DNA from: Squalus acanthias
Lineage: Eukaryota
Assembly (NCBI GenBank): GCA_030390025.1
Contig: JASTWF010000033.1
Location: 5,396,001-5,460,000, forward strand
Direction: 5' to 3'
Length of the DNA: 64,000 nt
In this document: piece by piece, positions 1-22,130 of the stretch
How positions within the stretch are numbered: the stretch's first letter is position 1
Layout of the letters: every line of letters begins with the position of its first letter
Translations under genes and position numbers: made by a program
Notes under the pieces: model-generated
Database searches by the model: none
Seen by the model: the letters and a program-made list of their open reading frames with translations, nothing else
Told to the model about the DNA's origin: nothing

Positions 1-195
1 TGGTGAGGACCTGGAACTCGCTGCCAACAGAAGTGGTGGAAGCGGAGACACTCAATGTTCTCAAGGGGAGACTGGATAGGCTCTTGAGGGAAATAAACTT
101 GCAGGGCTACGGGGATTGAGCGGGGGAATGGGACTGACTGGATTGCATGGCAGAGAGCCGGAACGGCTCCTTCTGTACCGTTATGACTCTATGAT
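1..195 (+). mobile_element. CR1 LINE 3' end fragment (mirror at about 24775-25035, minus strand)
   Basis: gtggtgaggacctggaactcgctgcc (RVV..WN.LP region), followed by a 3' UTR ending in ttatgactctatgat. Confidence 0.8.
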
Positions 196-867
196 CTCGA
201 GCCAAGCTGAAATTATGTTAAGTTCATTCTTCAGCAGCAGGTATGGTGCTGAGCCCAACACAGAAATGAAAATGGCCAGCCTCCACCCCCGGCCTGTGGT
301 CTCTTAGTTCCTCATTTATTGGGCTACTGAGCAATACAGGAAGGGCTCAAGCCTAATGAATATCTTAATGCTCAGGATAATTTATCACTGCCCACGGACT
401 CTCTGATTCCAGTCTTGCACAAGTTGCTAAGTTTCAAATGTAGCATTTTTCACACTGGCAAAGAATTGATTGATAGCCGTGCTGTGATAAGCTAAGTTTT
501 TCAGGGAGATGCAGTGGGCAAGAAGATACATGAAAGACTATTGATAATTGTGACTGTTCTGACACTGTGAGCTACAGTTAAATGTGGGCAACATCTAAAG
601 TGTCTAGTTCCAAATGTTGACAGAAAGGTTGAATCATTTCCTGCCAACTTTGAACAGCAGGAATTTTACAGAAGGCAAGGATGAGCATTTGTGAATTTAA
701 GATAATTTTCACGCCAGGCAAACTTTTCGTACAAAATGACATTTTTTAGGTGACAACACAAAAGACATGTTTGCGAAACCACAGCAACAAGTGTGGGTAG
801 GCATCCACTTGAAATATGTTTCCTTCTGTGCTTTTCTCAGAGACACAGCGAGACAGACAGAGAGTAG

Positions 868-907
868 CCGTCGGGGAATTGAATAGTCACCACTATACTA
901 TCAAGCA
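868..907 (-). pseudogene. tRNA-Asp-derived remnant, anticodon arm deleted (mirror 24063-24102 +)
   Basis: Mirror reads TCCTTGATAGTATAGTGGTGACTA joined to TTCAATTCCCCGACGG, which are the 5' and 3' ends of vertebrate tRNA-Asp(GTC). Confidence 0.75.
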
Positions 908-1370
908 CCTGGTTCAGGAAGTAGTTATGCAGTGCTTGAGACAAATGCTCAAACACACAAAGAGACAGACATGTGTGTGTGCTCTCTTTGTGTGTGTATG
1001 TCTCAGATATCCATCTGAGTTTCATGGATTCATGCAGCACAGAGGGAGGCCATTCGGCCCTTCGTACCTGTGCTGTCTCTTTGAAAGAGCAGTCGTGCTT
1101 AGTCCCAAACCCCAGCTTTTTGTGCGTAACCCTGTTAATCTATTTTTCTCTGTCACTCTCTCCCTCCTCCGTGCTCCACTCAAAAAGGAGAGGGAAACAG
1201 AGAGGGGGCACTATAGTAACGAGGAATTGGTGCAGGAAGTTGTTTTACATATCTTCATATGCCAGTACATCTTTTAACATTATTTTAGTTACTTCTTTTC
1301 TGTTCACCTTTTCCAAGAAGCATTTTAAGGAGCTGCCCAAAGGTTTAAAATTGGGGATGTTAAAAAGCGT

Positions 1371-1437
1371 CTTTCCCGTCGGGGAATTGAACCCCGGTCA
1401 CCCGCGTGACCAGGCAGGGATACTATACTAACGAGTA
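1371..1437 (-). pseudogene. tRNA-Asp(GTC) pseudogene
   Basis: CTCGTTAGTATAGTATCCCTGCCTGGTCACGCGGGTGACCGGGGTTCAATTCCCCGACGGGAAAG: D-arm deletion (GGTGAGT lost), extra G in the anticodon loop, TTTTT terminator downstream. Confidence 0.9.
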
Positions 1438-1489
1438 ACTAACAGATGTAGAATCTGTCAGAGGAACAGTCGAGCTGTGAACAGAGTGA

Positions 1490-1745
1490 GAAAGAGAGAG
1501 TAGAGAAGGACATAGAGAGAGACAGAGACAAAGAGAGAGATAGAGACAAAGAGAGAGACAGAGACAAAGAGAGAGACAGAGACAAAGAGAGAGACAAAGA
1601 GAGAGACAGAGAGAGAGACAGAGACAAAGAGAGAGACAGAGACAAAAAGAGAGACAGAGACACAGAGAGAGACAGAGAGAGAGACAGAGACAAAGAGAGA
1701 GACAGATTGCGACACAGAAAGAGAGACAGACACACAGAGCGAGAG
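1490..1745. repeat. GA-rich simple repeat (gagagacagagacaaa-like units); mirror about 23185-23460
   Basis: Directly visible; the unit number differs between arms. Confidence 0.95.
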
Positions 1746-1764
1746 CCTCAGTTTGACGTATCAT

Positions 1765-2232
1765 AGAGTGGTCCCCGGGATGAGGGACTTCAGTTATGTG
1801 GAGAGACTGCAGAAGCTGGGATTGTTTTCCTCAGAAGGTTAAGAGGTAATTTAATGGAGGTTTTCAAAATGACAAGGGGTTTTGATAGAGTAAATAAGCA
1901 GAAACTTTTTCCAGTGGCAGGAGGTTCGGTAACCAAAGGACACCGATTGAAGATAACCGGCAAAAGAACGAGAGGGGAGATGAGGAAACATGTTTTACGC
2001 TGCGAGTTATTGTGATCGGGAATGCGCTGCCTGAAAGGGCGGTGGAAGCAGATTCAATAGTAACTTTCAAAAGAGAATTGGATAAATAATTGAATAGGAG
2101 AAACTTGCAGGGCTGTGGGGAAAGAGCAGGGGAGTGGGACTAATTGGAGAGCTCTTTCAAAGTGCCAGCGCTGACTTGATGGTCCGAATGGCCTCCTTCT
2201 GTGCCGTATCAATCTATGATTCTATGGTCTAT
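1765..2232 (+). mobile_element. CR1 LINE 3' fragment (mirror about 22700-23165 -)
   Basis: gggatgagggacttcagttatgtggagagactg...ctttcaaaagagaattgg, with a ctatgattctatg tail. Confidence 0.85.
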
Positions 2233-2372
2233 GTGTCGCTCCGCCCCGGTGTCAAAGGTGCAATGGATGTTAATCCAAATAATTCCCCCGTGAGATTCGG
2301 TGTGGAATTGTTTCCTAATAAAACTTGTATTTCAAATGTTACGATAGCCTTAAAATTATGAAAATATTCGGA

Positions 2373-2446
2373 TGGCCTGTACTGGGATCAAACCCGTGAC
2401 CTTGGCGTTATTCGCACCACGCTCTCACCAACTGAGGTAATCGGCC
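2373..2446 (-). pseudogene. tRNA-Ile(AAT), degenerate
   Basis: GGCCGATTACCTCAGTTGGTGAGAGCGTGGTGCGAATAACGCCAAGGTCACGGGTTTGATCCCAGTACAGGCCA: U33 changed to G, TTC changed to TTT in the B box, stem mismatches. Confidence 0.9.
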
Positions 2447-2802
2447 ACAAAGCACCCGTTGGATAGGTTCGGACCCAGGCTGGGGGATTGTCTTTCAGGC
2501 TCACACTGGGTTACCGAGTTACTGCACAAACATTGAACACCCCACATCGCTTAAACATTGTCAACTGTTCGTATATACAACTGGGCAGATCGTAAAGCGA
2601 AAGTAACAGAAAAAGAGCTCTTTAAGCTAACAAACCTCATTCTAAAAATTATTCTCACACCACCGCTGAACAGCCCCTCCCTCAAACACTGTCCCGATAT
2701 AAAACCAGTTGACGCGACCCTGAGCCGCTGTCACCACAACCGGACTCGAACCAGCAGCGGGCGGCTGGAGCTGGATCCAGAGGGTCAGATGTGGTTTACA
2801 CA

Positions 2803-3557
2803 TAAGAACATACGAAAAGAAGCAGGAGTAGTCCATTTGGCCTCCAAAGCTGCTCCTCCATTCAATACAATCATGGCTGATCTTCTACCTCATCTCCACT
2901 TTCCTGCACTATCCCCATGTCATAAGAACATAATTGATTCATTTAATATTGAAAAATCTGTCGATCTCTGCCTTGAATATACTCAAGGACTGAGCTTCCA
3001 CAGGCCTCCGGAGTAGATAATTCCAAAGATTCACCACCCTTTGAGTGAATAAATTTCTTCTCATCACAGTACTAAATGGCCAACCCCTTATTCTGAGACT
3101 TTTACCCCTGGTTCTAGACTCCCCAGCCAGGGGAAACATTATCCCTGCATCCAACCTGTCAAGCCCTGTAAGAATGTTGTATGTTTCAATGAGATCACCT
3201 CTCATTCTTATAAATTCTAGAGAATATAGTCCTAGTCTACTCAATCTCTCCTCATGGGACAATCAACCCAGCCCATGAACCAGTCTGGTAAACCTTCGTT
3301 GCACTCCATCTATGGCAAGTATATCCTTCCTTAGATAAGGAGACCAAAACTGTGCACAATTCTCCAGGTGTGGTCTCACCAGGGCCCCATATAATTACAG
3401 TAAGAAGTCTTTACTCTTATACTCAAATCCTCTTGCAATAAAGGCCAACATAGCATTTGCTTTCCTAATTGCTTGCTGTACCTGCATGTTAACTTTCAAT
3501 GATTCGTGTACAAGGACAGCCAGGTCCCTCTGAATAACAACATTTCCCAATCTCTCA
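2803..3557 (-). mobile_element. CR1 LINE 3' part (host of the Penelope insertion; continues at 5749-5985)
   Basis: Peptides MQVQQAIRKANAMLAFIARGFEYKSKD and EERLSRLGLYSLE..RMRGDLIETY...FTQRVVNLWN; upstream piece [12 protein letters not shown]. Confidence 0.92.
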
Positions 3558-3657
3558 TACGATAGCAAAATACTGCGGATGCTGGAAATCTGAAATAACA
3601 ACAGAAAACGCTGGAAAAACTCAGCAGGCCAGGCAGCATCCGTGGAGAGAGAAAGAG

Positions 3658-3694
3658 AGTTAACGTTTCAGGTCGATGACCTTTCGTCAGAACT
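3658..3694 (-). ncRNA. Minimal type I hammerhead ribozyme in Penelope pLTR
   Basis: AGUU-CUGACGA-A-AGGUC(AUC)GACCU-GAAACGUU-AACU: conserved cores, 5-bp stem II, 4-bp stem I, palindromic ACGU in place of stem III. Confidence 0.85.
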
Positions 3695-3972
3695 GTGAAG
3701 AGCCGGAAATCAAATAGATTTAAGGCCAGAGTAAAGCTGGGAAAAGGGGGAGGGGATAAAAGAACAAAGGGGGAGATGAAGAGACATTAAGAGACATTAA
3801 GAGATATGCAAGGCTAGAGGTGGTGTTAATGTGACAGATTAAGGCTGAAAGAAGTGTGAAATCCACTGGCAGAATGAAGGACAGCTGCCAGCTTCTAGGA
3901 GGAAAAAAAAGGTGGGGGGGGGGCAAATAAAAGGGTGGAAAAAATAAAATATAAATGTGATTGGAGCTGAGG

Positions 3973-5742
3973 TTATGATCTAAAATTGTTGAACTCGATA
4001 TTGAGTCCAGAGGGCTGTAGCGTGCCTAAACGAAAGATGAGGTGCTGTTCCTCGAGCTTACGCTGCGCTTCCGTGGAACAGTGTAATAGGCCAAGGACGG
4101 TGAGGTCAGAGTGGGAGTGAAGCGGTGAATTAAAGTGACAGGCCACCGGGAGCTCGGGGTCCCCCTTACGGACTGAACGGAGGTGTTCCGCAAAGCGGTC
4201 ACCCAATCTGCGTTTGGTCTCCCCAATGTAGAGGAGACCACATCGTGAGCAGCGAATACAGTATACTAAATTGCAGGAAGTACAAGTAAATCGCTGTTTC
4301 ACCTGGAAGGGGTGTTTGGGGCCCTGGACAGTGGGAAGAGGGGAGGTGTAAGGGCATGTGTTGCATCTCCTGCGCGTGCACGGGAAGGTGCCGGGCGAAG
4401 GGGAAGGGGTGCTGGGGGTGGTAGATGAGTGGACTAGGGTGTCGCGGAGGGAGCGGTCCCTGCGGAATGCTGAAAGGGGAGGTGAGGGGAAGATGTGTTT
4501 GGTGGTGGGATCACGCTGGAGGTGGCGGAAATGGCGGAGGATGATCCGTTGAATGTGGAGGCTGGTGGGGTGAAAGGTGAGGACAAGGGGCACCCTATCG
4601 TGGTTCCGGGAGGGAGGGGCAGGGGTGAGGGCAGAAGTGCGGGAGATAGAACGGACCCGGTCGAGGGCCATGTCGACCACGGTAGAGGGGAATCCTCGGT
4701 TGAGGAAAAAGGAAGACATGTCGGAAGCACTGGTATGGAAGGTGGCATCATCAGAGCAGATGCGGCGGAGACGGAGAAACTGGGAGAATGGAATAAAGTC
4801 CTTACAGGAGGCGGGGTGGGAGGAAGTGTAGTCCAGGTAACTGTGGGAGTCAGTGGGCTTGTAGTGAATGTTAGTCAATAACCTATCCCCAGAGATGGAG
4901 ATGGAGAAGTCGAGGAAGGGAAGGGAAGAGTCGGAGATGGACCATGTGAAGGTGAGGGAAGGGTGGAAATTGGAAGCATAGTGAATGAAATGTTCTAGTT
5001 CAGGGCGAGAGCAGGAGACGGCACCGATACAGTCATCAATGTACCGGAAAAAGAGGTGAGGGAGGGGACCCGAGTAGGACTGGAACAAAGAGTGTTCCAC
5101 ATATCCCACGAAAAGGCAGGCATAGCTAGGACCCATGCGGGTACCCATAGCAACACCTTTAATTTGGAGGAAATGGGTAGAGTCAAAGGAGAAGTTGTTC
5201 AATGTGAGAACAAGTTCAGCCAAGCGGAGGAGGGTGGTGGTGGATGGGGACTGGTTGGGCCTCTGTTCAAGGAAGAAGCGGAGCGCCCTCAGGCCATCCT
5301 GGTGGGGAATGGAGGTGTAGAGGGATTGTACGTCCATAGTGAAGAGGAGACGGTTGGGGCCGGGAAACTGGAAACTGTTAAAATGGCGGAGGGCATCGGA
5401 AGAATCGCGGATGTAGGTGGGAAGAGACTGGACAAGGGGAGAAAAAATAGAGTCGAGATAGGAAGAGATAAGTTCCGTGGGGCAAGAACAGGCTGAAACA
5501 ATGGGTCTACCGGGGCAGTCCTGTTTGTGGATCTTGGGAAGGAGGTAGAAGCGGGCTGTGCGCGGTTGGGGAACTATGAGGTTGGCGGCCGTGGGGGGAA
5601 GATCTCCAGAGGAGATGAGGTCAGTGACGGTCTTGGACACGGTGGCTTGATGTTCAGTAGTGGGGTCATGGTCCAGGTGGAGGTAATTATTGGCCCCGGA
5701 CCCCGGGGGGAACTCGGCCACTGTTTTTCGAAATAGTGCCAT
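3973..5742 (-). CDS. Penelope-like reverse transcriptase + GIY-YIG endonuclease (589 aa, chimeric N-terminus)
   Basis: RT motifs FYLLPKIHK..PGRPIVS, MDVQSLYTSIP, GVAMGTRMGPSYA, RYIDD, LPFLD; Cys linker CTRRRCNTC (Neptune-type); endonuclease VYCIRCSRCGLLYIGET..HFN..GLN. Confidence 0.92.
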   Translation of the reverse strand: MALFRKTVAEFPPGSGANNYLHLDHDPTTEHQATVSKTVTDLISSGDLPPTAANLIVPQPRTARFYLLPKIHKQDCPGRPIVSACSCPTELISSYLDSIFSPLVQSLPTYIRDSSDALRHFNSFQFPGPNRLLFTMDVQSLYTSIPHQDGLRALRFFLEQRPNQSPSTTTLLRLAELVLTLNNFSFDSTHFLQIKGVAMGTRMGPSYACLFVGYVEHSLFQSYSGPLPHLFFRYIDDCIGAVSCSRPELEHFIHYASNFHPSLTFTWSISDSSLPFLDFSISISGDRLLTNIHYKPTDSHSYLDYTSSHPASCKDFIPFSQFLRLRRICSDDATFHTSASDMSSFFLNRGFPSTVVDMALDRVRSISRTSALTPAPPSRNHDRVPLVLTFHPTSLHIQRIILRHFRHLQRDPTTKHIFPSPPLSAFRRDRSLRDTLVHSSTTPSTPSPSPGTFPCTRRRCNTCPYTSPLPTVQGPKHPFQVKQRFTCTSCNLVYCIRCSRCGLLYIGETKRRLGDRFAEHLRSVRKGDPELPVACHFNSPLHSHSDLTVLGLLHCSTEAQRKLEEQHLIFRLGTLQPSGLNIEFNNFRS

Positions 5743-6095
5743 GGGATCTTTCCCAATCTCTCACTATTTCAACAATACTCTGCTTTTCTGTTTTTCCTAC
5801 CAAAGTGGATAACTTCACATTTGTCTACATTATATTCCATTTGCCATGTTGTTGCCCACTCACTTAGCCCGTCCATATCCCCTTGAAGCCTCCTTGCATC
5901 CTCCTCACAAATTACATTCCCACCCAGCTTTGTATCGTCAGCAACCTTGGATATATTACATTTGGTCCCCACTCCCAAATCATAGATGAGGGGACCAAGT
6001 TCACTGCTATTGGTCTGGGAGGCGTGGGTTCAAGAGCGAAAAATCTCTCCTGATTCTCTCCCCTTATAGTGAAGGAAAAACAAATTAAACAAAAT

Positions 6096-6148
6096 TGGCG
6101 AAACCCGGGATTGAACCAGGGTATTTAGATCTTCAGTCGAAGGCTCTC
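6096..6148 (-). pseudogene. tRNA-Phe(GAA) 3' fragment (mirror 18667-18719 +)
   Basis: GAGAGCCTTCGACTGAAGATCTAAATACCCTGGTTCAATCCCGGGTTTCGCCA; the 5' end is missing. Confidence 0.85.
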
Positions 6149-6259
6149 GATTGATTTGTAGCCGGGCTGCCATGGCGGGCTGCAGCTCCCACAATGCAGA
6201 GCGCCAGGGAAAGGCCCCTATCTCTGTGACACAGGCCGCGCTGCACTCTGGGAGCAGAG

Positions 6260-6600
6260 TTCACACATGCGCACCTCACCCACCCGATGAGCCGCCGCTT
6301 TCTCTCTGCGGCGCGGGACAAACTTTCAGTCTCTCGGTTCAGAGCGAGCGGTGATTTTGCTGGAAACTGACGTCACTTTTCCTTTTAATCGCGCGGTTTC
6401 ATGGCCGTAAACAGCGCGCATGCGCAGTGAGGTGGGTCGCACCAAGATGGCGTTCGGGCGGCGGGTGACGCCACAATGCTCGCAGACGTCAGAGCGCCCT
6501 GATTGGCGGTTTGTCCCGGGGCCGAGGGTCAGGGGTCAGGGGGCGGCTCCTGTCTCCGGCCAGAGAGAGCGGGCGGGCGCTGAGATTAGAGCGAGCCCGG
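6260..6600. promoter_or_regulatory. CpG-rich, housekeeping-promoter-like segment
   Basis: CRE TGACGTCA 6368-6375, NRF1-like GCGCATGCGCA 6416-6426, YY1-like CAAGATGGCG 6443-6452, inverted CCAAT 6502-6506, GC-box-like motifs, high CpG density. Confidence 0.55.
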
Positions 6601-6734
6601 GGCAACCTGCATTTCCCCAGCGCCTTTCACAGCCTCAGCCCGGCCCAGAGCCTCACACACAATGGGGGGCTTGTGAAGGGAGCTCACTCCAGGAAAAGCG
6701 GCAGGCACTGTGGGCACAGCAAGATCCATAATAC

Positions 6735-6854
6735 GATAGCAAAATACTGCAGATGCTGGAAATCCGAAATAACAACAGAAAACGCTGGAAAAACTCAGCA
6801 GGCCAGGCAGCATCCGTAGAGAGAGAAAGAGAGTTGACGTTTCAGGTCGATGAC
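6735..6854 (-). mobile_element. Solo 5'-truncated Penelope pLTR with 9-bp TSD
   Basis: Matches the pLTR at 3558-3680 with 4 substitutions. TSD ccataatac at 6726-6734 and 6855-6863. Confidence 0.92.
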
Positions 6855-6864
6855 CCATAATACT

Positions 6865-7056
6865 GCACTGTGGGCACAGCAAGATCCCACACACTGCACT
6901 GTGGACACAGCAAGATCCCACACACAGCACTTTGGGCACAGCAAGATCCCACACACAGCACTGTGGGCACAGCAAGATCCCACACACAGCACTGTGGACA
7001 CAGCAAGATCCCACACACCACTTTGGGCACAGCAAGATCCCACACACAGCACTGTG
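6865..7056. repeat. 31-bp tandem repeat, about 6 copies, amplified from the SINE tail
   Basis: Unit gcactgtgggcacagcaagatcccacacaca starting at 6865, 6896, 6927, 6958, 6989. Confidence 0.93.
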
Positions 7057-7634
7057 GCCAATGGCCAAATAATCGCTTCAGTGATGTTGGTCAAGGGAGA
7101 AATATTGGCCCCGGACCCCGGGGGGAACTCGGCCACTGTTTGTCGAAATAGTGCCATGGGATCTTTTACATCCACCTGAGAGGGCAGACAGGGCCTCGGG
7201 TTAACGTCTCATCCAAGAGACGGCACCTGCGACAGAGCAGCACTCCCTCAGCACCGCACTGAAGTGACAGCCTGGATTTTGTGCTTAACTCTCTGGAGGG
7301 GGGCTTGAACACACAACCTTTATGATTCTAGAAGCGAGAGAGTGTTACCAATGAGCCAAGGCCGACACCGAGTACATCAGAATGGTCCTTAATTCTTCCG
7401 TCCCCTAACCCAATGTGGCTTTCTTCCACAGGAGAAGTCGTGCCGGAACTTCCAGGAATTTTCAGAAGGAATTTTGATCGGAGATGAAATGTTCAGGAGA
7501 ATACTTCATTCCGACTGGAAACTGCTTTGGATGATCACATGGCCGGGAGACACCAAGACATCAGGTGGGCAGTTTCTCTGTCGAGGTGGGCAGTTTAAAA
7601 GGAAGTGGAACTGTGCGGGGAGAAAGTTGGCGGA

Positions 7635-8660
7635 GGACAGGAAACAGAGGGTCAGTGTTAATGGGAGTTGGTCAGATTGGTGAAGAGTTGGAAGTGGTTA
7701 CCCCAGGGGTCAGTGCTGGGCCCACTTTTCTTCTCCGTATTCAGAGACTGTTCGGATTTAGGAATCAGGAGCACAGTCTGAACATTTGCTGATGGCACAA
7801 AAGTAGGAGGTTTGACAAACAGTAATGAGACTGTAAATGTGTTCAGGAAGACATTGTGCAGAAAAGGAAAAATCGACCTGTCACTCAATTATTTTGGTCT
7901 CAAATTGATATCCTCTGGTTACCGACTCACTAACCAGTGGGGATAGTTTATTTCTGTTACTTCATTAAAAGCCCCCTCAAAATGTTGAACCCCTCTATCT
8001 GATCCCCTTTTCAACTTCTCTACTCTGAAGAAAAGTTATGTGAAGACTCCCGTCCTTGGGATCATATTAGTGAATCTCTTCTGCAGCTCTCCCAGGCCTT
8101 ACTTTCTTACTAAAATAATGCACCTAAAACTGGAGACAATATTCTGACTGTGGCTGAACCAATGATTTGTCCAGGTGTAGCTTTAACTCTGCTTTTATAC
8201 TCTATGTCCTTACTTATAATTCCTCGGATCTCATGTGGAATTTTGTAAAACAGTTTTATCAACTTGCCTCCCACATTTAAAGATTTGTCTATCTGAATCC
8301 CTGAATCTCTCTGCTCCTCCACTCCTTTTACAGTTTTATCATATAGTGTCTATTTCCTCTCATTCTTCCCACCTCACATCTCTCTGCATTAATTTCCATC
8401 TGACATCTACCTGTCCAATCTGCTCATCTGTCCCTCTCCTCCTGAAGTTCTCGACAGTCCTCTTCATGGTTAACCTCACTCCTTATCTTTGTGGAAGCTG
8501 CAATGTTTGTTATTGTGACCTCAACACCCAAATTCAGCTCAATCATAACCACATATATTGAGAAAAGCAATGGTGCCCACACTGACCCCTGGGGATCACC
8601 ACAGTTTAAATCCTTCCAGTGCAAGAAACAGCTATTAACCACAACTCTCAGTTTTTTTGT
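7635..8660. mobile_element. Old degenerate CR1 RT fragments in both orientations (mirror about 16980-18000)
   Basis: Remnants RKQRVSVNG, PQGSV, FADGTK and DIEYKSR. Confidence 0.7.
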
Positions 8661-8904
8661 GATTCACCCATCCTGTCTCTCTCTCTTTCTCCTTTCCAAC
8701 CTCTCATGTTCATTATCCCTCAGTTCTCGAGCACAAACAGTCTCTTTACTCCTTTTCTCCCGCCGAATCATTAAAAAGTGTTTCTCCCCTTTGTCGCCAA
8801 CAGTCTCTGTTCTTCTCACTCTTGTATGCACACCTTCTCTCTCCCTCCCTCCCTCCCTCTCTCACTCGCTCCCTCCCTTTCCGACCCTCCCTCATTATCA
8901 CACA

Positions 8905-11900
8905 CAGCCTCTGAGTCTCACTCTCTCACACACTGTCTCTCAGACTCACTCTCTCACACACTGTCTCTATAAGACTCACTCTCTCACACTGTCTCTCAGA
9001 CTCACTCTCTCACACTGTCTCTCTCAGACTCACTCTCTCACACACTGTCTCTCAGACTCACTCTCTCACACACTGTCTCTATAAGACTCACTCTCTCACA
9101 CTGTCTCTCAGACTCACTCTCTCACACTGTCTCTCTCAGACTCACTCTCTCACACACTGTCTCTCAGACTCACTCTCTCTCACACTGTCTCTATAAGACT
9201 CACTCTCTCACACACTGTCTCTCTCAGACTAACTCTCTCACACTGTCTCTCTCAGACTCTCTCACACACCGTCTCTCTCAGACTCACTCTCTCACACACT
9301 GTCTCTCTCAGACTCACTCTCTCACACACTGTCTCTCTCAGACTCACTCTCACACACTCTCTCACATACTGTCTCTATCAGACTCACTCTCTCACACTGT
9401 CTCTCAGACTCTCTCTCACACACTGTCTCTCTCAGACTCACTCTCACACACTGTCTCTCTCAGACTAACTCTCTCACACTGTCTCTCTCAGACTCTCTCA
9501 CACACCGTCTCTCTCAGACTCACTCTCTCACACACTGTCTCTCTCAGACTCACTCTCTCACACACTGTCTCTCTCAGACTCACTCTCACACACTCTCTCA
9601 CATACTGTCTCTATCAGACTCACTCTCTCACACTGTCTCTCAGACTCTCTCTCACACACTGTCTCTCTCAGACTCACTCTCACACACTGTCTCTCTCAGA
9701 CTCACTCTCTCACACAGTCTCTCTCAGACTCACTCTCACTCACACTGTCTCTCAGACTCACTCTCTCACACACTGTCTCTCTCAGACTCACTCTCTCACA
9801 CTGTCTCTCTCAGACTCACTCTCTCACACACCGTATCTCTCAGACTGACTCTCTCACACACTGTCTCTCTCAGACTCTCTCACACTGTCTCGCTCAGACT
9901 GTCTCTCTCAGACTCACTCTCTCACACTCACTGTCTCTCTCAGACTCACTCTCTCACACACTCTCACACACTGTCTCTCTCAGACTCACTCTCTCACACA
10001 CTGTCTCTCTCAGACTCACTCTCACACACTCTCACACTCTCTCTCTCTCTCTCTCTCACTGTCTCTCAGTCATGCACTCTCACACTGTCTCTCTCAGACT
10101 CTCTCACACTCTCTCTGACACTGTCTCTCTCAGACTCACTTTCTCAGACTCTCTCACACACTGTCTCTCTCAGATTAACTCTCTCACACACTGTCTCTCT
10201 CAGACTCACTCTCTCACACACTGTCTCTCTCAGACTCACTCTCACACACTCTCTCACATACTGTCTCTATCAGACTCACTCTCTCACACTGTCTCTCAGA
10301 CTCTCTCTCACACACTGTCTCTCTCAGACTCACTCTCACACACTGTCTCTCTCAGACTCACTCTCTCACACAGTCTCTCTCAGACTCACTCTCACTCACA
10401 CTGTCTCTCAGACTCTCTCACACTGTCTCGCTCAGACTGTCTCTCTCAGACTCACTCTCTCACACTCACTGTCTCTCTCAGACTCACTCTCTCACACACT
10501 CTCTCTCACACACTCTCTCTCAGACTCACTCTCTCACACACTGTCTCTCTCAGACTCACTCTCACACTCTCTCTCTCTCTCTCTCTCACTGTCTCAGTCA
10601 TGCACTCTCACACTGTCTCTCTCAGACTCTCTCACACTCTCTCTGACACTGTCTCTCTCAGACTCACTTTCTCAGACTCTCTCACACACTGTCTCTCTCA
10701 GATTAACTCTCTCACACACTGTCTCTCTCAGACTCACTCTCTCTCACACTGTCTCTCTCAGACTCACTCTCTCACACAGTGTCTCTCTCAGACTCACTAT
10801 CTCACACAGTCTCTCTCAGCCTCACTCTCTCACACATTGTCTCTCTCAGCCTCACTCTCTCACACATTGTCTCTCTCAGACTCTCTCTCACACACTGTCT
10901 CTCTCAGACTCACTCTCTCACACACTCTCTATCAGACTCACTCTCTCACACACTGTCTCTCTCAGACTCACTCTCTCACACACTGTCTCTCTCATGCTCT
11001 CTCTCTCACACACTGTCTCTCTCAGACTCACTCTCACACACTGTCTCTCTCAGACTCACTCTCTCACACACTGTCTCTCTCACACTCTCTCACACACTGT
11101 CTCTCTCGGACCCTCTCTCACACACTGTCTCTCTCAGACTCACTCTCTCAGACACTGTCTCTTTCAGACTCACTCTCTCACTCAGACTCACTCTCTCACA
11201 CACTGACTCTCTCAGACTCACGCTCTCACACACTGTCTCTCTCAGACTCTCTCACACTCTCTCTCAGACTCACTCTCTCTCACACACTCTCTCTCAGACT
11301 CACTCTCTCACACACTGTCTCTCTCAGACTCACTCTCTCTCACACGGTCTCTCTCAGACTCACTCTCTCACACACTGTCTCTCTCAGACTCACTCTCTCA
11401 CACAGTCTCTCTCAGACTCACTCTCACACACATTGTCTCTCTCAGACTCACTCTCTCTCACACTGTCTCTCTCAGACTCACTCTCACACACTGTCTCTCT
11501 CAGACTCACTCTCACACACATTGTCTCTCTCAGACTCACTCTCTCTCACACTGTCTCTCTCAGACTCACTCTCTCACACACTATCTGTCAGACTCACTCT
11601 CTCACACACTGTCTCTCTCAGACTCACTCTCTCACACACTGTCTCAGACTCACTCTCTCACACACTGTCTCTCTCAGACTCACTCTCACTCACACTGTCT
11701 CTCAGACTCACTCTCACACACCGTATCTCTCAGACTTTCTCTCACACACTGTCTCTCTCAGACTCACTCTCTCACACACTGTCTCTATCAGACTCACTCT
11801 TTCACACACTGTCTCTCAGACTCACTCTCTCACACACTGTCTCTCTCAGACTCACTCTCTCACACACTGTCTCTCTCAGACTCACTCTCTCTCACACACT

Positions 11901-13570
11901 GTCTCTCTCAGACTCACTCTCTCCTACACAGTCTCTCAGACTCACTCTCACTCACACTCACTCAGACTCACTCTCTCACACACTGTCTCTCTCAGACTCA
12001 CTCTCTCACACACTGTCTCTCTCAGACTCACGCTCTCACACACTGTCTCTCTCAGACTCTCTCTCTCTCACACTCTCCCTCACACTCACTCTCTCTCAGA
12101 CTCACTCTCTCACAGTCTCTCTCAGACTCACTCTCACACACACACTGTCTCTCTCAGACTCACTCTCACACACACTGTCTCTCAGACTCACTCTCTCTCA
12201 CACTGTCTCTCTCAGACTCACTCTCTCACACACTGTCTCTCAGACTCACTCTCACACACATTGTCTCAGACTCACTCTCTCACACATTGTCTCTCTCAGA
12301 CTCACTCTCTCACACACTGTCTCTCAGACTCACTCTCTCTCACACTCTCTCTCAGACTCACTCTCTCTCTCACAGTCTCTCTCATACTCACACTCACACA
12401 CTGTATCTGTCAGACTCACTCTCTCACACTGTCTCTCTCAGACTCACTCTCTCACACACTGTCTCTCTCAGACTCACTCTCACACACATTGTCTCACAGA
12501 CTCACTCTCTCACACACTGTCTCTCTCAGACTCACTCTGTCACACTGTCTCTCTCAGACTCACTCTCTCACACACTGTCTCTCTCAGACTCACTCTCTCT
12601 CACACAGTCTCTCTCAGACTCACTCTCTCTCACACAGTCTCTCTCAGACTCACTCTCTCACACACTCTCAGACTCACTCTCTCACACACTGTCTCTCTGA
12701 CTCACTCTCTCACTCAGACTCACTCTCTCACACACTGACTCTCTCAGACTCACTCTCTCACACACTGTCTCTCTCAGACTCACTCTCTCTCACACTCTCT
12801 CTCTGGGACTCACTCTCACACACATTGTCTCTCTCAGACTCTCTCTCACACTGTCTCTCTCAGACTCACACTCCCACACACACTGTCTCTCTCAGACTCA
12901 CTCTCACACACATTGTCTCTCTCAGACTCACTCTCTCACACACTGTCTCTCAGTCTCACTCTCACACACAGACTCTCTCAGCCACACTCTCTCTCTTGCT
13001 CTCTCTCTCTGACTCTCTCTCTCACACACATTGTCTCTCTCAGACTCACTCTCTCACACATTGTCTCGTCAGACTCACTCACTCTCACACTGTCTCTCTC
13101 AGACTCACTCTCACACACTGTCTCTCTGAGACTCTCTCTCTCACACACTGTCTCTCTCAGACTCAATCTCTCACACTGTCTCAGACTCACTCTCTCACAC
13201 TCTGTCTCTCTCAGACTCACTCTCTCACACACTGTCTATCAGACTCACTCTCACACTGTCTCTCTCAGACTCACTCTCTCTCACACTGTCTCTCTCAGAC
13301 GCAATCTCTCACACACTGTCTCTCTCAGACTCACTCTCTCACACACTGTCTCTCTGTCTCACGCTCTCACACACTGTCTCTCAGACTCACTCTCTTACAC
13401 ACTGTCTCTCAGACTCACTCCCTCACACACTGTCTCTCAGACTCTCTCCCTCACACACTGTCTCTCAGACTCACTCTCTCACACTGTCTCTCTTAGACAC
13501 ACTCTCTCACACTCTGTCTCTCTCAGACTCACTCTCTCACACACTGTCTCTCAGACTCACTCTCTCACAT
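8905..13570. repeat. CT/CA-rich minisatellite, about 30-bp unit cagactcactctctcacacactgtctctct
   Basis: Directly visible, with 26-32 bp variants. It generates the spurious Ser/Leu/His/Thr ORFs. Confidence 0.97.
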
Positions 13571-14070: not shown

Positions 14071-16113
14071 GAGAGAGAGTGAGTCTGAGAGAGAGTGTGA
14101 GAGAGAGTGAGTCTGAGAGAGACAGTGTGTGAGAGAGTGAGTCTGAGAGAGAGTGTGACAGTGAGTCTGAGAGAGACAGTGTGTGAGAGAGAGAGAGTCT
14201 GAGAGAGACAATGTGTGAGAGAGTGAGTCTGAGACAATGTGTGTGAGAGTGAGTCTGAGAGACAGTGTGTGAGAGAGTGAGTCTGAGAGAGACAGTGTGA
14301 GAGAGAGTGAGTCTGAGAGAGACAATGTGTGTGAGAGTGAGTCTGAGAGAGACAGTGTGTGTGGGAGAGTGAGTCTGAGAGAGAAAGTGTGTGAGAGTGA
14401 GTCTGAGAGAGACAGTGTGTGAGAGAGTGAGTCTGAGTGAGAGTGAGTGAGAGTGAGTCTGAGAGACAGTGTGTGAGAGAGAGTGAGTCTGAGAGAGACA
14501 GTGTGTGAGAGAGAGTGAGTCTGAGAGAGACAGTGTGTGAGAGAGTGAGTCTGAGAGAGACAGTGTGTGAGAGAGTGAGTCTGAGAGACAGTGTGTGAAA
14601 GAGTGAGTCTGATAGAGACAGTGTGTGAGAGAGTGAGTCTGAGAGAGACAGTGTGTGAGAGAAAGTCTGAGAGATACGGTGTGTGAGAGAGTGAGTCTGA
14701 GAGAGACAGTGTGAGAGAGTGAGTCTGAGAGAGACAGTGTGAGAGAATGAGTCTGAGAGTGACAGTGTGTGAGAGAGTGAGTCTGAGAGACAGTGTGAGT
14801 GAGAGTGAGTCTGAGAGAGACAGTGTGTGAGAGAGTGAGTCTGAGACAGTGTGTGAGAGAGTGAGTCTGAGAGAGACTGTGTGAGAGAGAGTCTGAGAGA
14901 CAGTGTGTGAGAGAGTGAGTCTGTGAGAGACTGTGTGAGAGTGAGTCTGAGAGAGATGGTGTGTGAGAGAGTGAGTCTGAGAGAGACAATGTGTGAGAGA
15001 GTGAGTCTGAGAGAGACAGTGTGAGAGAGAGTGAGTCTGACAGATACAGTGTGTGAGAGTGTGAGTATGAGAGAGACAGAGAGAGTGAGTCTGAGAGTGA
15101 GTCTGAGAGAGAGTGTGAGAGAGAGTGAGTCTGAGAGAGACAGTGTGTGAGAGAGTGAGTCTGAGAGAGACAGTGTGACAGTGAGTCTGAGAGAGACAGT
15201 GTGTGAGAGAGAGAGAGTCTGAGAGAGACAGTGTGTGTGAGAGTGAGTCTGAGAGAGACAATGTGTGTGAGAGTGAGTCTGAGAGAGACAGTGTGAGAGA
15301 GAGTGAGTCTGAGAGAGACAGTGTGTGAGAGAGTGAGTCTGAGAGAGACCGTGTGAGAGAGAGTGAGTCTGAGAGAGACAGTGTGTGAGAGAGTGAGTCT
15401 GAGAGAGAGTGTGTGAGAGAGAGTGAGTCTGAGAGAGAGTGTGAGAGAGTCTGAGAGAGAGTGTGTGAGAGCGTGAGTCTGAGAGTCAGTGTGTGAGAGA
15501 GTGAGTCTGAGTGAGTCTGAGTGAGAGAGTGAGTCTGAAAGAGACAGTGTCTGAGAGAGTGAGTCTGAGAGAGACAGTGTGTGAGAGTGAGTCTGAGAGA
15601 GACAGTGTGTGAGAGAGGGTCCGAGAGAGACAGTGTGTGAGAGAGTGAGTCTGAGAGAGACAGTGTGTGAGAGAGAGAGCATGAGAGAGACAGTGTGTGA
15701 GAGAGTGAGTCTGAGAGAGACAGTGTGTGAGAGAGTGAGTCTGATAGAGAGTGTGTGAGAGAGTGAGTCTGAGAGAGACAGTGTGTGAGAGAGAGTCTGA
15801 GAGAGACAATGTGTGAGAGAGTGAGGCTGAGAGAGACAATGTGTGAGAGAGTGAGGCTGAGAGAGACTGTGTGAGATAGTGAGTCTGAGAGAGACACTGT
15901 GTGAGAGAGTGAGTCTGAGAGAGACAGTGTGAGAGAGAGTGAGTCTGAGAGAGACAGTGTGTGAGAGAGTTAATCTGAGAGAGACAGTGTGTGAGAGAGT
16001 GAGTCTGAGAGAGACAGTGTGTGAGAGAGTCTGAGAAAGTGAGTCTGAGAGAGACAGTGTCAGAGAGAGTGTGAGAGAGTCTGAGAGAGACAGTGTGAGA
16101 GTGCATGACTGAG

Positions 16114-16145
<32 letters not shown>

Positions 16146-16733
16146 TGTGAGAGTGTGTGAGAGTGAGTCTGAGAGAGACAGTGTGTGAGAGAGTGAGTCT
16201 GAGAGAGACAGTGAGTGTGAGAGAGAGTCTGAGAGAGACAGTCTGAGCGAGACAGTGTGAGAGAGTCTGAGAGAGAGTGTGTGAGAGAGTGAGTCTGAGA
16301 GAGACAGTGTGAGAGAGTGAGTCTGAGAGAGACAGTGTGTGAGAGAGTGAGTCTGAGAGAGAGTGTGTGAGAGAGTGAGTCTGAGAGAGACAGTGTGAGA
16401 GAGTGAGTCTGAGAGAGACAGTGTGTGAGAGAGTGAGTCTGAGAGACAGTGTGAGTGAGAGTGAGTCTGAGAGAGACAGTGTGTGAGAGAGTGAGTCTGA
16501 GAGAGACAGTGTGTGAGAGAGTCAGTCTGAGAGATACGGTGTGTGAGAGAGAGAGTCTTATAGAGACAGTGTGAGAGAGAGTGAGTCTGAGAGACAGTGT
16601 GTGAGAGAGTGAGTCTGAGAGAGACAGTGTGAGAGAGTGAGTCTGAGAGACAGTGTGAGAGAGTGAGTCTTATAGAGACAGTGTGTGAGAGAGTGAGTCT
16701 GAGAGACAGTGTGTGAGAGAGTGAGACTCAGAG
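14071..16733. repeat. Same minisatellite in inverted orientation
   Basis: agagagacagtgtgtgagagagtgagtctg units. Confidence 0.97.
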
Positions 16734-18865
16734 GCTGTGTGTGATAATGAGGGAGGGTCGGAAAGGGAGGGAGCGAGTGAGAGAGGGAGGGAAGGAGAGA
16801 GAAGGTGTGCATACAAGAGTGAGAAGAACAGAGACTGTTGGCGACAAAGGGGAGAAACACTTTTTAATGATTCGGCGGGAGAAAAGGAGTAAAGAGACTG
16901 TTTGTGCTCGAGAACTGAGGGATAATGAACATGAGAGGTTGGAAAGGAGAAAGAGAGAGAGACAGGATGGGTGAATCACAAAAAAACTGAGAGTTGTGGT
17001 TAACAGCTGTTTCTTGCACTGGAAGGATTTAAACTGTGGTGATCCCCAGGGGTCAGTGTGGGCACCATTGCTTTTCTCAATATATGTGGTTATGATTGAG
17101 CTGAATTTGGGTGTTGAGGTCACAATAACAAACATTGCAGCTTCCACAAAGATAAGGAGTGAGGTTAACCATGAAGAGGACTGTCGAGAACTTCAGGAGG
17201 AGAGGGACAGATGAGCAGATTGGACAGGTAGATGTCAGATGGAAATTAATGCAGAGAGATGTGAGGTGGGAAGAATGAGAGGAAATAGACACTATATGAT
17301 AAAACTGTAAAAGGAGTGGAGGAGCAGAGAGATTCAGGGATTCAGATAGACAAATCTTTAAATGTGGGAGGCAAGTTGATAAAACTGTTTTACAAAATTC
17401 CACATGAGATCCGAGGAATTATAAGTAAGGACATAGAGTATAAAAGCAGAGTTAAAGCTACACCTGGACAAATCATTGGTTCAGCCACAGTCAGAATATT
17501 GTCTCCAGTTTTAGGTGCATTATTTTAGTAAGAAAGTAAGGCCTGGGAGAGCTGCAGAAGAGATTCACTAATATGATCCCAAGGACGGGAGTCTTCACAT
17601 AACTTTTCTTCAGAGTAGAGAAGTTGAAAAGGGGATCAGATAGAGGGGTTCAACATTTTGAGGGGGCTTTTAATGAAGTAACAGAAATAAACTATCCCCA
17701 CTGGTTAGTGAGTCGGTAACCAGAGGATATCAATTTGAGACCAAAATAATTGAGTGACAGGTCGATTTTTCCTTTTCTGCACAATGTCTTCCTGAACACA
17801 TTTACAGTCTCATTACTGTTTGTCAAACCTCCTACTTTTGTGCCATCAGCAAATGTTCAGACTGTGCTCCTGATTCCTAAATCCGAACAGTCTCTGAATA
17901 CGGAGAAGAAAAGTGGGCCCAGCACTGACCCCTGGGGTAACCACTTCCAACTCTTCACCAATCTGACCAACTCCCGTTAACACTGACCCTCTGTTTCCTG
18001 TCCTCCGCCAACTTTCTCCCCGCACAGTTCCACTTCCTTTTAAACTGCCCACCTCGACAGAGAAACTGCCCACCTGATGTCTTGGTGTCTCCCGGCCATG
18101 TGATCATCCAAAGCAGTTTCCAGTCGGAATGAAGTATTCTCCTGAACATTTCATCTCCGATCAAAATTCCTTCTGAAAATTCCTGGAAGTTCCGGCACGA
18201 CTTCTCCTGTGGAAGAAAGCCACATTGGGTTAGGGGACGGAAGAATTAAGGACCATTCTGATGTACTCGGTGTCGGCCTTGGCTCATTGGTAACACTCTC
18301 TCGCTTCTAGAATCATAAAGGTTGTGTGTTCAAGCCCCCCTCCAGAGAGTTAAGCACAAAATCCAGGCTGTCACTTCAGTGCGGTGCTGAGGGAGTGCTG
18401 CTGTTTACGGCCATGAAACCGCGCGATTAAAAGGAAAAGTGACGTCAGTTTCCAGCAAAATCACCGCTCGCTCTGAACCGAGAGACTGAAAGTTTGTCCC
18501 GCGCCGCAGAGAGAAAGCGGCGGCTCATCGGGTGGGTGAGGTGCGCATGTGTGAACTCTGCTCCCAGAGTGCAGCGCGGCCTGTGTCACAGAGATAGGGG
18601 CCTTTCCCTGGCGCTCTGCATTGTGGGAGCTGCAGCCCGCCATGGCAGCCCGGCTACAAATCAATCGAGAGCCTTCGACTGAAGATCTAAATACCCTGGT
18701 TCAATCCCGGGTTTCGCCAATTTTGTTTAATTTGTTTTTCCTTCACTATAAGGGGAGAGAATCAGGAGAGATTTTTCGCTCTTGAACCCACGCCTCCCAG
18801 ACCAATAGCAGTGAACTTGGTCCCCTCATCTATGATTTGGGAGTGGGGACCAAATGTAATATATC

Positions 18866-18994
18866 TGATGAAAGGTCATCGACCTGAAACGTCAACTCTC
18901 TTTCTCTCTCTACGGATGCTGCCTGGCCTGCTGAGTTTTTCCAGCGTTTTCTGTTGTTATTTCGGATTTCCAGCATCTGCAGTATTTTGCTATC
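18866..18994 (+). mobile_element. Solo Penelope pLTR with 10-bp TSD, right arm only
   Basis: TSD gtaatatatc at 18856-18865 and 18995-19004; the left arm has the empty site at about 5950-5959. Confidence 0.95.
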
Positions 18995-19187
18995 GTAATA
19001 TATCCAAGGTTGCTGACGATACAAAGCTGGGTGGGAATGTAATTTGTGAGGAGGATGCAAGGAGGCTTCAAGGGGATATAGACGGGCTAATGGAATATAA
19101 TGTAGACAAATGTGAAGTTATCCACTTTGGTAGGAAAAACAGAAAAGCAGAGTATTGTTGAAATAGTGAGAGATTGGGAAAGATCCC

Positions 19188-20957
19188 ATGGCACTATTTC
19201 GAAAAACAGTGGCCGAGTTCCCCCCGGGGTCCGGGGCCAATAATTACCTCCACCTGGACCATGACCCCACTACTGAACATCAAGCCACCGTGTCCAAGAC
19301 CGTCACTGACCTCATCTCCTCTGGAGATCTTCCCCCCACGGCCGCCAACCTCATAGTTCCCCAACCGCGCACAGCCCGCTTCTACCTCCTTCCCAAGATC
19401 CACAAACAGGACTGCCCCGGTAGACCCATTGTTTCAGCCTGTTCTTGCCCCACGGAACTTATCTCTTCCTATCTCGACTCTATTTTTTCTCCCCTTGTCC
19501 AGTCTCTTCCCACCTACATCCGCGATTCTTCCGATGCCCTCCGCCATTTTAACAGTTTCCAGTTTCCCGGCCCCAACCGTCTCCTCTTCACTATGGACGT
19601 ACAATCCCTCTACACCTCCATTCCCCACCAGGATGGCCTGAGGACGCTCCGCTTCTTCCTTGAACAGAGGCCCAACCAGTCCCCATCCACCACCACCCTC
19701 CTCCGCTTGGCTGAACTTGTTCTCACATTGAACAACTTCTCCTTTGACTCTACTCATTTCCTCCAAATTAAAGGTGTTGCTATGGGTACCCGCATGGGTC
19801 CTAGCTATGCCTGCCTTTTCGTGGGATATGTGGAACACTCTTTGTTCCAGTCCTACTCGGGTCCCCTCCCTCACCTCTTTTTCCGGTACATTGATGACTG
19901 TATCGGTGCCGTCTCCTGCTCTCGCCCTGAACTAGAACATTTCATTCACTATGCTTCCAATTTCCACCCTTCCCTCACCTTCACATGGTCCATCTCCGAC
20001 TCTTCCCTTCCCTTCCTCGACTTCTCCATCTCCATCTCTGGGGATAGGTTATTGACTAACATTCACTACAAGCCCACTGACTCCCACAGTTACCTGGACT
20101 ACACTTCCTCCCACCCCGCCTCCTGTAAGGACTCTATTCCATTCTCCCAGTTTCTCCGTCTCCGCCGCATCTGCTCTGATGATGCCACCTTCCATACCAG
20201 TGCTTCCGACATGTCTTCCTTTTTCCTCAACCGAGGATTCCCCTCTACCGTGGTCGACATGGCCCTCGACCGGGTCCGTTCTATCTCCCGCACTTCTGCC
20301 CTCACCCCTGCCCCTCCCTCCCGGAACCACGATAGGGTTCCCCTTGTCCTCACCTTTCACCCCACCAGCCTCCACATTCAACGGATCATCCTCCGCCATT
20401 TCCGCCACCTCCAGCGTGATCCCACCACCAAACACATCTTCCCCTCACCTCCCCTTTCAGCATTCCGCAGGGACCGCTCCCTCCGCGACACCCTAGTCCA
20501 CTCCTCTACCACCCCCAGCACCCCTTCCCCTTCGCCCGGCACCTTCCCGTGCACGCGCAGGAGATGCAACACATGCCCTTACACCTCCCCTCTTCCCACT
20601 GTCCAGGGCCCCAAACACCCCTTCCAGGTGAAACAGCGATTTACTTGTACTTCCTGCAATTTAGTATACTGTATTCGCTGCTCACGATGTGGTCTCCTCT
20701 ACATTGGGGAGACCAAACGCAGATTGGGTGACCGCTTTGCGGAACACCTCCGTTCAGTCCGTAAGGGGGACCCCGAGCTCCCGGTGGCCTGTCACTTTAA
20801 TTCACCGCTTCACTCCCACTCTGACCTCACCGTCCTTGGCCTATTACACTGTTCCACGGAAGCGCAGCGTAAGCTCGAGGAACAGCACCTCATCTTTCGT
20901 TTAGGCACGCTACAGCCCTCTGGACTCAATATCGAGTTCAACAATTTTAGATCATAA
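19188..20957 (+). CDS. Penelope-like RT + GIY-YIG endonuclease (589 aa)
   Basis: Same motifs as the left copy; differs by 2 aa (LRAL/LRTL, KDFI/KDSI). Confidence 0.92.
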   Translation: MALFRKTVAEFPPGSGANNYLHLDHDPTTEHQATVSKTVTDLISSGDLPPTAANLIVPQPRTARFYLLPKIHKQDCPGRPIVSACSCPTELISSYLDSIFSPLVQSLPTYIRDSSDALRHFNSFQFPGPNRLLFTMDVQSLYTSIPHQDGLRTLRFFLEQRPNQSPSTTTLLRLAELVLTLNNFSFDSTHFLQIKGVAMGTRMGPSYACLFVGYVEHSLFQSYSGPLPHLFFRYIDDCIGAVSCSRPELEHFIHYASNFHPSLTFTWSISDSSLPFLDFSISISGDRLLTNIHYKPTDSHSYLDYTSSHPASCKDSIPFSQFLRLRRICSDDATFHTSASDMSSFFLNRGFPSTVVDMALDRVRSISRTSALTPAPPSRNHDRVPLVLTFHPTSLHIQRIILRHFRHLQRDPTTKHIFPSPPLSAFRRDRSLRDTLVHSSTTPSTPSPSPGTFPCTRRRCNTCPYTSPLPTVQGPKHPFQVKQRFTCTSCNLVYCIRCSRCGLLYIGETKRRLGDRFAEHLRSVRKGDPELPVACHFNSPLHSHSDLTVLGLLHCSTEAQRKLEEQHLIFRLGTLQPSGLNIEFNNFRS

Positions 20958-21235
20958 CCTCAGCTCCAATCACATTTATATTTTATTTTTTCCACCCTTT
21001 TATTTGCCCCCCCCCCACCTTTTTTTTCCTCCTAGAAGCTGGCAGCTGTCCTTCATTCTGCCAGTGGATTTCACACTTCTTTCAGCCTTAATCTGTCACA
21101 TTAACACCACCTCTAGCCTTGCATATCTCTTAATGTCTCTTAATGTCTCTTCATCTCCCCCTTTGTTCTTTTATCCCCTCCCCCTTTTCCCAGCTTTACT
21201 CTGGCCTTAAATCTATTTGATTTCCGGCTCTTCAC

Positions 21236-21272
21236 AGTTCTGACGAAAGGTCATCGACCTGAAACGTTAACT
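21236..21272 (+). ncRNA. Minimal type I hammerhead ribozyme
   Basis: agtt ctgacga a aggtc atc gacct gaaacgtt aact. Confidence 0.85.
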
Positions 21273-21372
21273 CTCTTTCTCTCTCCACGGATGCTGCCTG
21301 GCCTGCTGAGTTTTTCCAGCGTTTTCTGTTGTTATTTCAGATTTCCAGCATCCGCAGTATTTTGCTATCGTA

Positions 21373-22130
21373 TGAGAGATTGGGAAATGTTGTTATTCAG
21401 AGGGACCTGGCTGTCCTTGTACACGAATCATTGAAAGTTAACATGCAGGTACAGCAAGCAATTAGGAAAGCAAATGCTATGTTGGCCTTTATTGCAAGAG
21501 GATTTGAGTATAAGAGTAAAGACTTCTTACTGTAATTATATGGGGCCCTGGTGAGACCACACCTGGAGAATTGTGCACAGTTTTGGTCTCCTTATCTAAG
21601 GAAGGATATACTTGCCATAGATGGAGTGCAACAAAGGTTCACCAGACTGGTTCATGGGCTGGGTTGATTGTCCCATGAGGAGAGATTGAGTAGACTAGGA
21701 CTATATTCTCTAGAATTTATAAGAATGAGAGGTGATCTCATTGAAACATACAACATTCTTACAGTGCTTGACAGGTTGGATGCAGGGATGATGTTTCCCC
21801 TGGCTGGGGAGTCTAGAACCAGGGGTAAAAGTCTCAGAATAAGGGGTTGGCCATTTAGTACTGTGATGAGAAGAAATTTATTCACTCAAAGGGTGGTGAA
21901 TCTTTGGAATTATCTACTCCAGAGGCCTGTGGAAGCTCAGTCCTTGAGTATATTCAAGGCAGAGATCGACAGATTTTTCAATATTAAATGAATCAATTAT
22001 GTTCTTATGATATGGGGATAGTGCAGGAAAGTGGAGATGAGGTAGAAGATCAGCCATGATTGTTTTGAATGGAGGAGCATGTTTGGAGGCCAAATGGACT
22101 ACTCCTGCTTCTTTTCTTATGTTCTTATGT
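21373..22130 (+). mobile_element. CR1 LINE 3' part (right-arm copy; upstream part 18830-19181)
   Basis: Mirror of 2803-3557. Confidence 0.92.

Follow-up and report, generated by a model that had tools for sequence, protein, structure and literature searches.

A 5'-truncated Penelope-like insertion in Squalus acanthias, its 5' end probably joined through a 64-bp copy of a neighbouring SINE

The 5'-joining step of Penelope-like elements (PLEs) has not been worked out, and the accessible text of the in vitro study of PAc, a Poseidon-type PLE of Anolis, describes second-strand synthesis and repair as steps that remain unvalidated (PMC11167929). A locus of Squalus acanthias bears on this step. The window, that is, the whole stretch of 64,000 nucleotides that was analysed (assembly GCA_030390025.1, contig JASTWF010000033.1, positions 5,396,001 to 5,460,000 of the forward strand), contains a truncated Penelope copy which an initial annotation described as a potentially translatable chimeric gene, its start codon being supplied by a patch of SINE sequence at the 5' junction. 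Two questions are raised by this locus: where the patch came from and how it was joined, and whether the resulting frame is a gene. Our main reading, to which we assign a probability of about 0.8, is that a copy of a young, high-copy Penelope family was 5'-truncated and its 5' end joined via a 64-base copy of a SINE 1.4 kb away, the ATG probably being incidental.

Anatomy of the insertion and its inverted copy

Positions 1-8700 of the window belong to a host segment that is present in multiple copies; its paralogues, on C21, C29, C2561 and unplaced contigs (loci L072-L080 and L004-L029), are about 95% identical to it. The segment contains pieces of LINEs, a stretch rich in CpG, and a SINE carrying a 31-bp tandem repeat that varies in length. 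A possible spliced exon of the segment was noted near 7433-7565, and a piece near 6095-6140 is presumably a partial tRNA-Phe-like sequence. The 15-bp target site duplication (TSD) that had been reported was recovered on both sides of the element (Table 1), and in all seven host-segment paralogues examined the 15-mer is present as a single copy with no insertion, so that these represent empty sites. The first 3 nt of the TSD are also the last 3 nt of the patch (AAA/TTT microhomology). The reported frame of 589 aa, with an in-frame ATG from the patch, was likewise found to be open on the minus strand.

Table 1. Positions of the features discussed, in the window unless another contig is named
Feature	Position	Strand	Details
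TSD, element 3' side	3543-3557		15 bp; empty site in 7/7 host-segment paralogues
TSD, element 5' side	5749-5763		second 15-bp copy
Penelope 3' UTR/pseudo-LTR with tail	3558-3972	minus	alignment to full-length copy
Chimeric ORF, open, 589 aa	3973-5742	minus	18 patch codons, 1 junction codon, 570 native codons
Native Penelope coding part	3976-5685	minus	aa 347-916 of the family protein; RT core, CX4CxxC linker, GIY-YIG
Filler, 2 nt, at Penelope/patch interface	5686-5687		alternative: 1-nt slip plus 1-nt microhomology
Templated patch, 64 bp	5688-5751	plus	ATG at 5742-5740 on the minus strand; last 3 nt common to TSD
CpG island-like stretch	6200-6599		GC 0.58-0.69, CpG o/e ~1.0; candidate promoter
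Donor, body of tRNA-headed SINE in multi-copy host segment	7103-7166	plus	one mismatch to patch
tRNA-like head of donor SINE	7300-7368	minus	A- and B-box-like motifs by eye
Arm 2, gap-to-gap scaffold piece	14071-53493		inverted copy of DNA from 28.5 kb before the window to ~11.6 kb
Arm-2 copy of whole insertion	19167-21387	plus	TSDs 19167 and 21373; patch 19179-19242; ORF 19188-20957
L114 patch	5676-5751 of locus (C1:40829005)		no clear TSD
L114 donor	4620-4695 of locus (C1:40827949)

The element was compared with L131, a full-length tandem copy encoding a protein of 916 aa, from which the locus copy keeps aa 347-916 at 99.1% DNA identity. Among 28 other close copies all 28 run on as native sequence at 5685, as was to be expected if other copies lack the patch and extend further 5', and it follows that the locus copy is truncated there and that 5686-5687 is filler. 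The fusion of the patch to NYLHL in the initial annotation is therefore real in substance, but the Penelope sequence begins at 5685 with YLHLD, the N being derived from the 2-nt filler where the native residue is S. Similarly, the statement that all RT and endonuclease motifs are retained applies to the RT core and the endonuclease but not to the N-terminus: aa 1-346 are lost, including KGLTF (aa 206) and IKPADKGG (aa 316), both of which are present in the full-length copy and correspond to the GxKF/Y and DKG motifs that the accessible text of PMC8557442 places at the N-terminus. A Pfam search of the ORF returned RVT_1 (E 1.2e-5) followed by GIY-YIG (E 6.4e-4), both below the Pfam curated cut-offs, and the motifs RYIDD, CX4CxxC and CxxC-LLYIG were located at aa 233, 455 and 494, respectively. 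A PDB sequence search with the full-length protein gave no match, and a single-sequence AlphaFold model (pLDDT 35) was unusable. Near 3662-3692 in the pseudo-LTR lies a candidate minimal hammerhead-like core, with motifs recognized by eye and a stem in the fold (z -0.49); an Rfam search returned no match.

An internal 33-mer of the family has at least 3,784 copies in the assembly, and the locus copy is young, differing from its family by about 0.5%. The layout of endonuclease-containing (EN+) PLEs, with one ORF in which RT is followed by a C-terminal GIY-YIG, was found here, and so were their characteristic forms in the family, namely tandem pseudo-LTR (L131), 5' inversion (26 of 128 copies), tail and TSD; the locus copy is a defective member of the EN+ PLEs. 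Within them, the CX4CxxC linker points to a Neptune-type family: as far as the accessible text of PMC8557442 goes, a CX2-5CxxC linker before GIY-YIG marks Neptune and is found in neither Penelope nor Poseidon. With the Neptune-type elements described there the family shares the single ORF, the linker, 5' truncation, tandem and inverted forms and the tail, whereas the locus copy differs from them in being without the N-terminal 346 aa that carry the GxKF/Y-like and DKG motifs, the clade having been placed by the linker. It differs from PAc in the linker itself, since Poseidon lacks the zinc-finger linker, and no 5'-junction patches are described for PAc in the accessible text of PMC11167929.

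A second copy of the whole insertion is found in arm 2, which matches arm 1 at 99.06% identity over 34.5 kb (98.0-99.6% per 3 kb). Divergence between the arms is uneven, amounting to 1.3-2.4% over 1-3557 and 0.2-0.5% over the insertion and 7236-9000. The arm-2 ORF is open and differs from that of arm 1 at two residues. Arm 2 is without 6416-7235, an 820-bp deletion (breakpoint 18400-18402, with few-base microhomology) that removed the donor segment and half of the CpG island. It is likely that arm 2 is a falsely placed allelic haplotig, and it may be a real inverted duplication; a single insertion event is behind both arms in either case. The support that had been drawn from both arms holds in that the ORF is open in each, but the arms do not constitute independent evidence because arm 2 is a near-identical gap-to-gap piece.

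Several other features of the two arms were recorded. Penelope 3'-end fragments of about 130 bp occur at 6728-6855 and 18864-19001; they are 99% alike, occupy different sites in each arm and have their own short duplications, and these two fragments, less than 1 kb from the main copy, look like independent or polymorphic insertions. A CT-rich minisatellite of 12-16 bp (8750-13570 and 14071-17000) lies on both sides of the assembly gap in the middle of the inverted duplicate, and 53994-64000, up to the window end, is occupied by a tandem array whose period is about 67 bp, at about 90% identity.

Source of the patch

As had been claimed, the patch is a 64-bp copy of the SINE segment at 7103-7166, in the same orientation, at an offset of 1,415 bp and with one mismatch. 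Judging from the strand of its tRNA-like head, the donor SINE shares its orientation with the Penelope element; ARAGORN found no tRNA gene, and the head was read by eye. The donor may belong to SacSINE1, a Deu-SINE, a type that comprises a tRNA head, a Deu domain and an L2-like tail; background on these SINEs is given in the accessible text of PMC5499810.

A 30-mer across the junction, searched with up to two mismatches, has two sites in the 3.7-Gb assembly, both in the arms of the window, and none of the 28 other close Penelope copies carries the junction. The possibility that the patch is a family-wide feature was rejected on this basis. In a genome search with the 64-mer, 40 of 597 candidates were scored, and among these, patches aside, the local SINE and one paralogue ranked highest, each at 98%. 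The patch differs from most paralogues at three positions, and a 35-nt stretch covering the diagnostic bases was searched exhaustively. With two positions left free, five exact sites were obtained; with up to two mismatches, six were obtained, consisting of the two patches, the local SINE and three paralogues. Among the non-patch sites the A that forms the ATG is found in the local SINE only, which is the sole non-patch site in the assembly with all three patch-diagnostic bases. The same A was seen in two diverged SINE copies with eight mismatches among the 28 non-patch loci listed. The initial proposal of a local SINE template is upheld by this distribution together with the locus-specific junction, and the check for distant SINEs that match equally well did not count against it: one distant paralogue also has a single mismatch, but the ATG-forming base is confined to the local copy.

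The ATG-forming base of the donor is a CpG site. Had it changed independently in patch and donor, which is possible but less likely, the fit of two paralogues would be just as good. Local templating of the patch nevertheless appears well supported, resting on three diagnostic bases of which one is at a CpG. The one private change of the donor likely postdates the copying.

5' junctions of the family and the mode of joining

A set of 128 family copies, each with about 10 kb of sequence mostly on the 5' side, was surveyed (55 first C1 matches, 40 carriers of variant bases and 33 top matches); the set leans toward young copies. TSDs of at least 10 bp were found in 69 of the 128 (median 13 bp, range 10-17), among which 53 showed direct or microhomology joins, 12 had 1-10 extra bases and four had 11-200. 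Local patches were tested at 127 loci, one being dropped as its 5' boundary lay beyond the fetched DNA. A second templated patch was found at L114, where the 5' junction is bordered by 76 bp that repeat, perfectly and in inverted orientation, DNA lying 1,056 bp away; the 76-mer occurs exactly twice genome-wide, and its source is a LINE fragment in inverted orientation. The L114 flanks, read by eye, are presumably one interrupted old pogo-like transposase.

Recurrence of the patch in the family is shown by this copy, and enrichment over background is not established: one of 127 junctions carries a local patch vs 52 of 88,860 control positions (P = 0.07), a figure obtained after masking of tandem repeats, by which the first controls were swamped. 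Matches at L140, L190, L135, L142 and L199 were discounted, being repeats already present in the flanks, or minisatellites. For the non-element 5' extras of L102 (52 nt) and L139 (21 nt), no donor was found within 10 kb at each locus.

A 15-bp TSD in one host-segment member, the truncation at aa 347, the identity of the donor and a junction unique to this locus are direct observations, and the following course of events would connect them. The GIY-YIG endonuclease would have made a 15-bp staggered cut, and the RT would have halted after about 2.1 kb. The free cDNA end could then have annealed to neighbouring DNA, been extended by 64 nt and been released, after which its new 3-nt end would have paired with the target overhang and the gap would have been filled. 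In an alternative order, the target end might have primed on the SINE first. The ATG would likely have been made earlier, in the local SINE, by a CpG-to-CpA change. Microhomology at the patch end is 3 nt on the target side. There is a loose resemblance between the cDNA end and the bases immediately preceding the donor; under three scoring schemes, 0.7%, 2.5% and 5.3% of 600 random local sites do equally well, and this similarity, weak and imperfect, may be taken as a hint only.

Two other origins of the patch were weighed against this reading. The Penelope RT might have switched to an RNA copy of the local SINE, as a Pol III transcript or minus-strand read-through, instead of to DNA. The head of the SINE is on the minus strand, so the polarity of SINE RNA fits extension of the cDNA, and A- and B-box-like motifs are present by eye; however, the piece that was copied comes from inside the SINE and stops where 3 nt match the target, a diffusible RNA would not prefer the nearest among many paralogues, and the inverted LINE fragment at L114 fits DNA of either strand. 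We consider an RNA template unlikely. Less probable still, and in our judgement very unlikely, is a patch donated by some distant host-segment paralogue, or one that repair or gene conversion introduced once the element was in place. One paralogue does have a single mismatch, the discriminating base is at a mutable CpG site and isolated local duplications also occur away from junctions, but the same CpG change would be needed twice within 1.4 kb and the patch lies exactly between the element and an intact TSD.

Copying from local DNA, the preferred reading, has parallels among LINEs. According to the accessible texts, inserts of the zebrafish LINEs ZfL2-2 and ZfL2-1 carry flank-derived extra nucleotides at their 5' ends (PMC4245944, PMC2666801). 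As here, a 5'-truncated retroelement has flank-derived extra DNA at its junction, which is accounted for by annealing or template-jump models; unlike those inserts, the present one is Penelope-like with a GIY-YIG, its patch is 64 bp long, its donor lies 1.4 kb away and an in-frame ATG is included. Templated insertions of L1 are described in the accessible text of 10.1101/2024.08.27.596794 as having templates typically within 15 bp of the site; those are somatic and near-site, whereas here the donor is 1.4 kb away in an assembled genome. A search of the literature on Penelope 5' fillers or templated junctions, with subscription journals mostly outside the search, found no paper. The locally templated 5'-junction patch belongs to a known class of insertion scars (ZfL2-2, L1), of which this is a clean example in a Neptune-type Penelope copy, the type being that suggested by the linker. 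Since its empty sites can be seen, its TSD is intact and its donor has diagnostic bases, the locus provides a clear case of Penelope 5' joining via DNA copied from more than 1 kb away, as in LINEs. Thousands of young copies are available in this genome, in which the frequency, strand and distance of patches are measurable.

Coding status of the chimeric frame

If the frame were a nascent domesticated RT-endonuclease gene, its transcription would begin at the CpG island and its translation at the patch ATG, and purifying selection would maintain it. Such a gene would have arisen in a single integration event, its start codon going back to one CpG mutation in the SINE at a distance of 1.4 kb, and would matter much more than an insertion scar; its sole support is an excess of synonymous changes. 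There are 12 private substitutions (seven common to both arms, three in arm 1 and two in arm 2), nine of which are synonymous vs 4.5 expected from mutation type (P = 0.008), as are six of the seven common to both arms (P = 0.015). Compared with the singletons of 59 young copies (58 of 168 synonymous), the 9/12 gave P ~0.005-0.007. These are small numbers, and the test was one of several. A synonymous excess with P < 0.05 was also seen in three of 22 control copies (lowest 0.018), and the pooled singletons are themselves synonymous-leaning (58 of 165 vs 48 expected), from which it follows that the null is slightly too strict.

A surviving source subfamily was sought as the cause of the silent changes and not found: among 52 copies examined, none with at least 97% identity has more than one variant, four of the seven arm-common variants having been searched genome-wide. 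A source element without other surviving copies would yield the same synonymous pattern. Among 88 matches, of which two were exact, no daughter copy with two linked private variants was found.

Apart from the substitutions, neither arm has a stop or frameshift, the RT core and endonuclease motifs are intact, and the CpG-rich region reported near the ORF start is confirmed at 0.46-0.86 kb upstream, its promoter role being putative. Against a gene stand 13 upstream ATGs on the minus strand between the CpG island and the start (6460-5743), a start context with C instead of a purine at -3 (G at +4), the loss of the GxKF-like and DKG motifs and the partial absence of the CpG island from arm 2; in the accessible text of PMC11167929, moreover, the N-terminal helix of the anole PLE is part of a predicted dimer interface. 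Short contigs of four sequencing runs over 3300-7700 and 5600-5830 were uninformative, as none among the pieces listed spans the junction by 31 letters on each side. No paper on domesticated vertebrate PLEs that matched was found in a literature search in which subscription journals were mostly outside coverage.

The family survey is the most direct comparison for the frame. Among 105 copies truncated within the ORF, the frame reaches the native stop uninterrupted in 39, an in-frame ATG lies upstream in 22 and both are true of seven; six of these seven keep as much or more coding sequence, and five keep DKG. Chimeric frames that stay open thus arise as ordinary by-products, and extrapolation puts their number in the region of 100-200 genome-wide. 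Young truncated copies are just as open as the locus copy in 29 of 41 cases, and the latter owes its open frame mainly to its youth. The claim of a translatable chimeric gene accordingly stands as far as an open frame with an ATG is concerned and is weak beyond that, with seven copies alike, 346 aa gone and the upstream ATGs in the way. On these sequence comparisons selection on the chimeric ORF, and with it a nascent gene, seems improbable, and the patch ATG is probably incidental. At another locus, L111, the open frame of a truncated Penelope copy is joined in frame with 158 codons from a LINE RT fragment in its flank, forming a longer chimera than the ORF described here.
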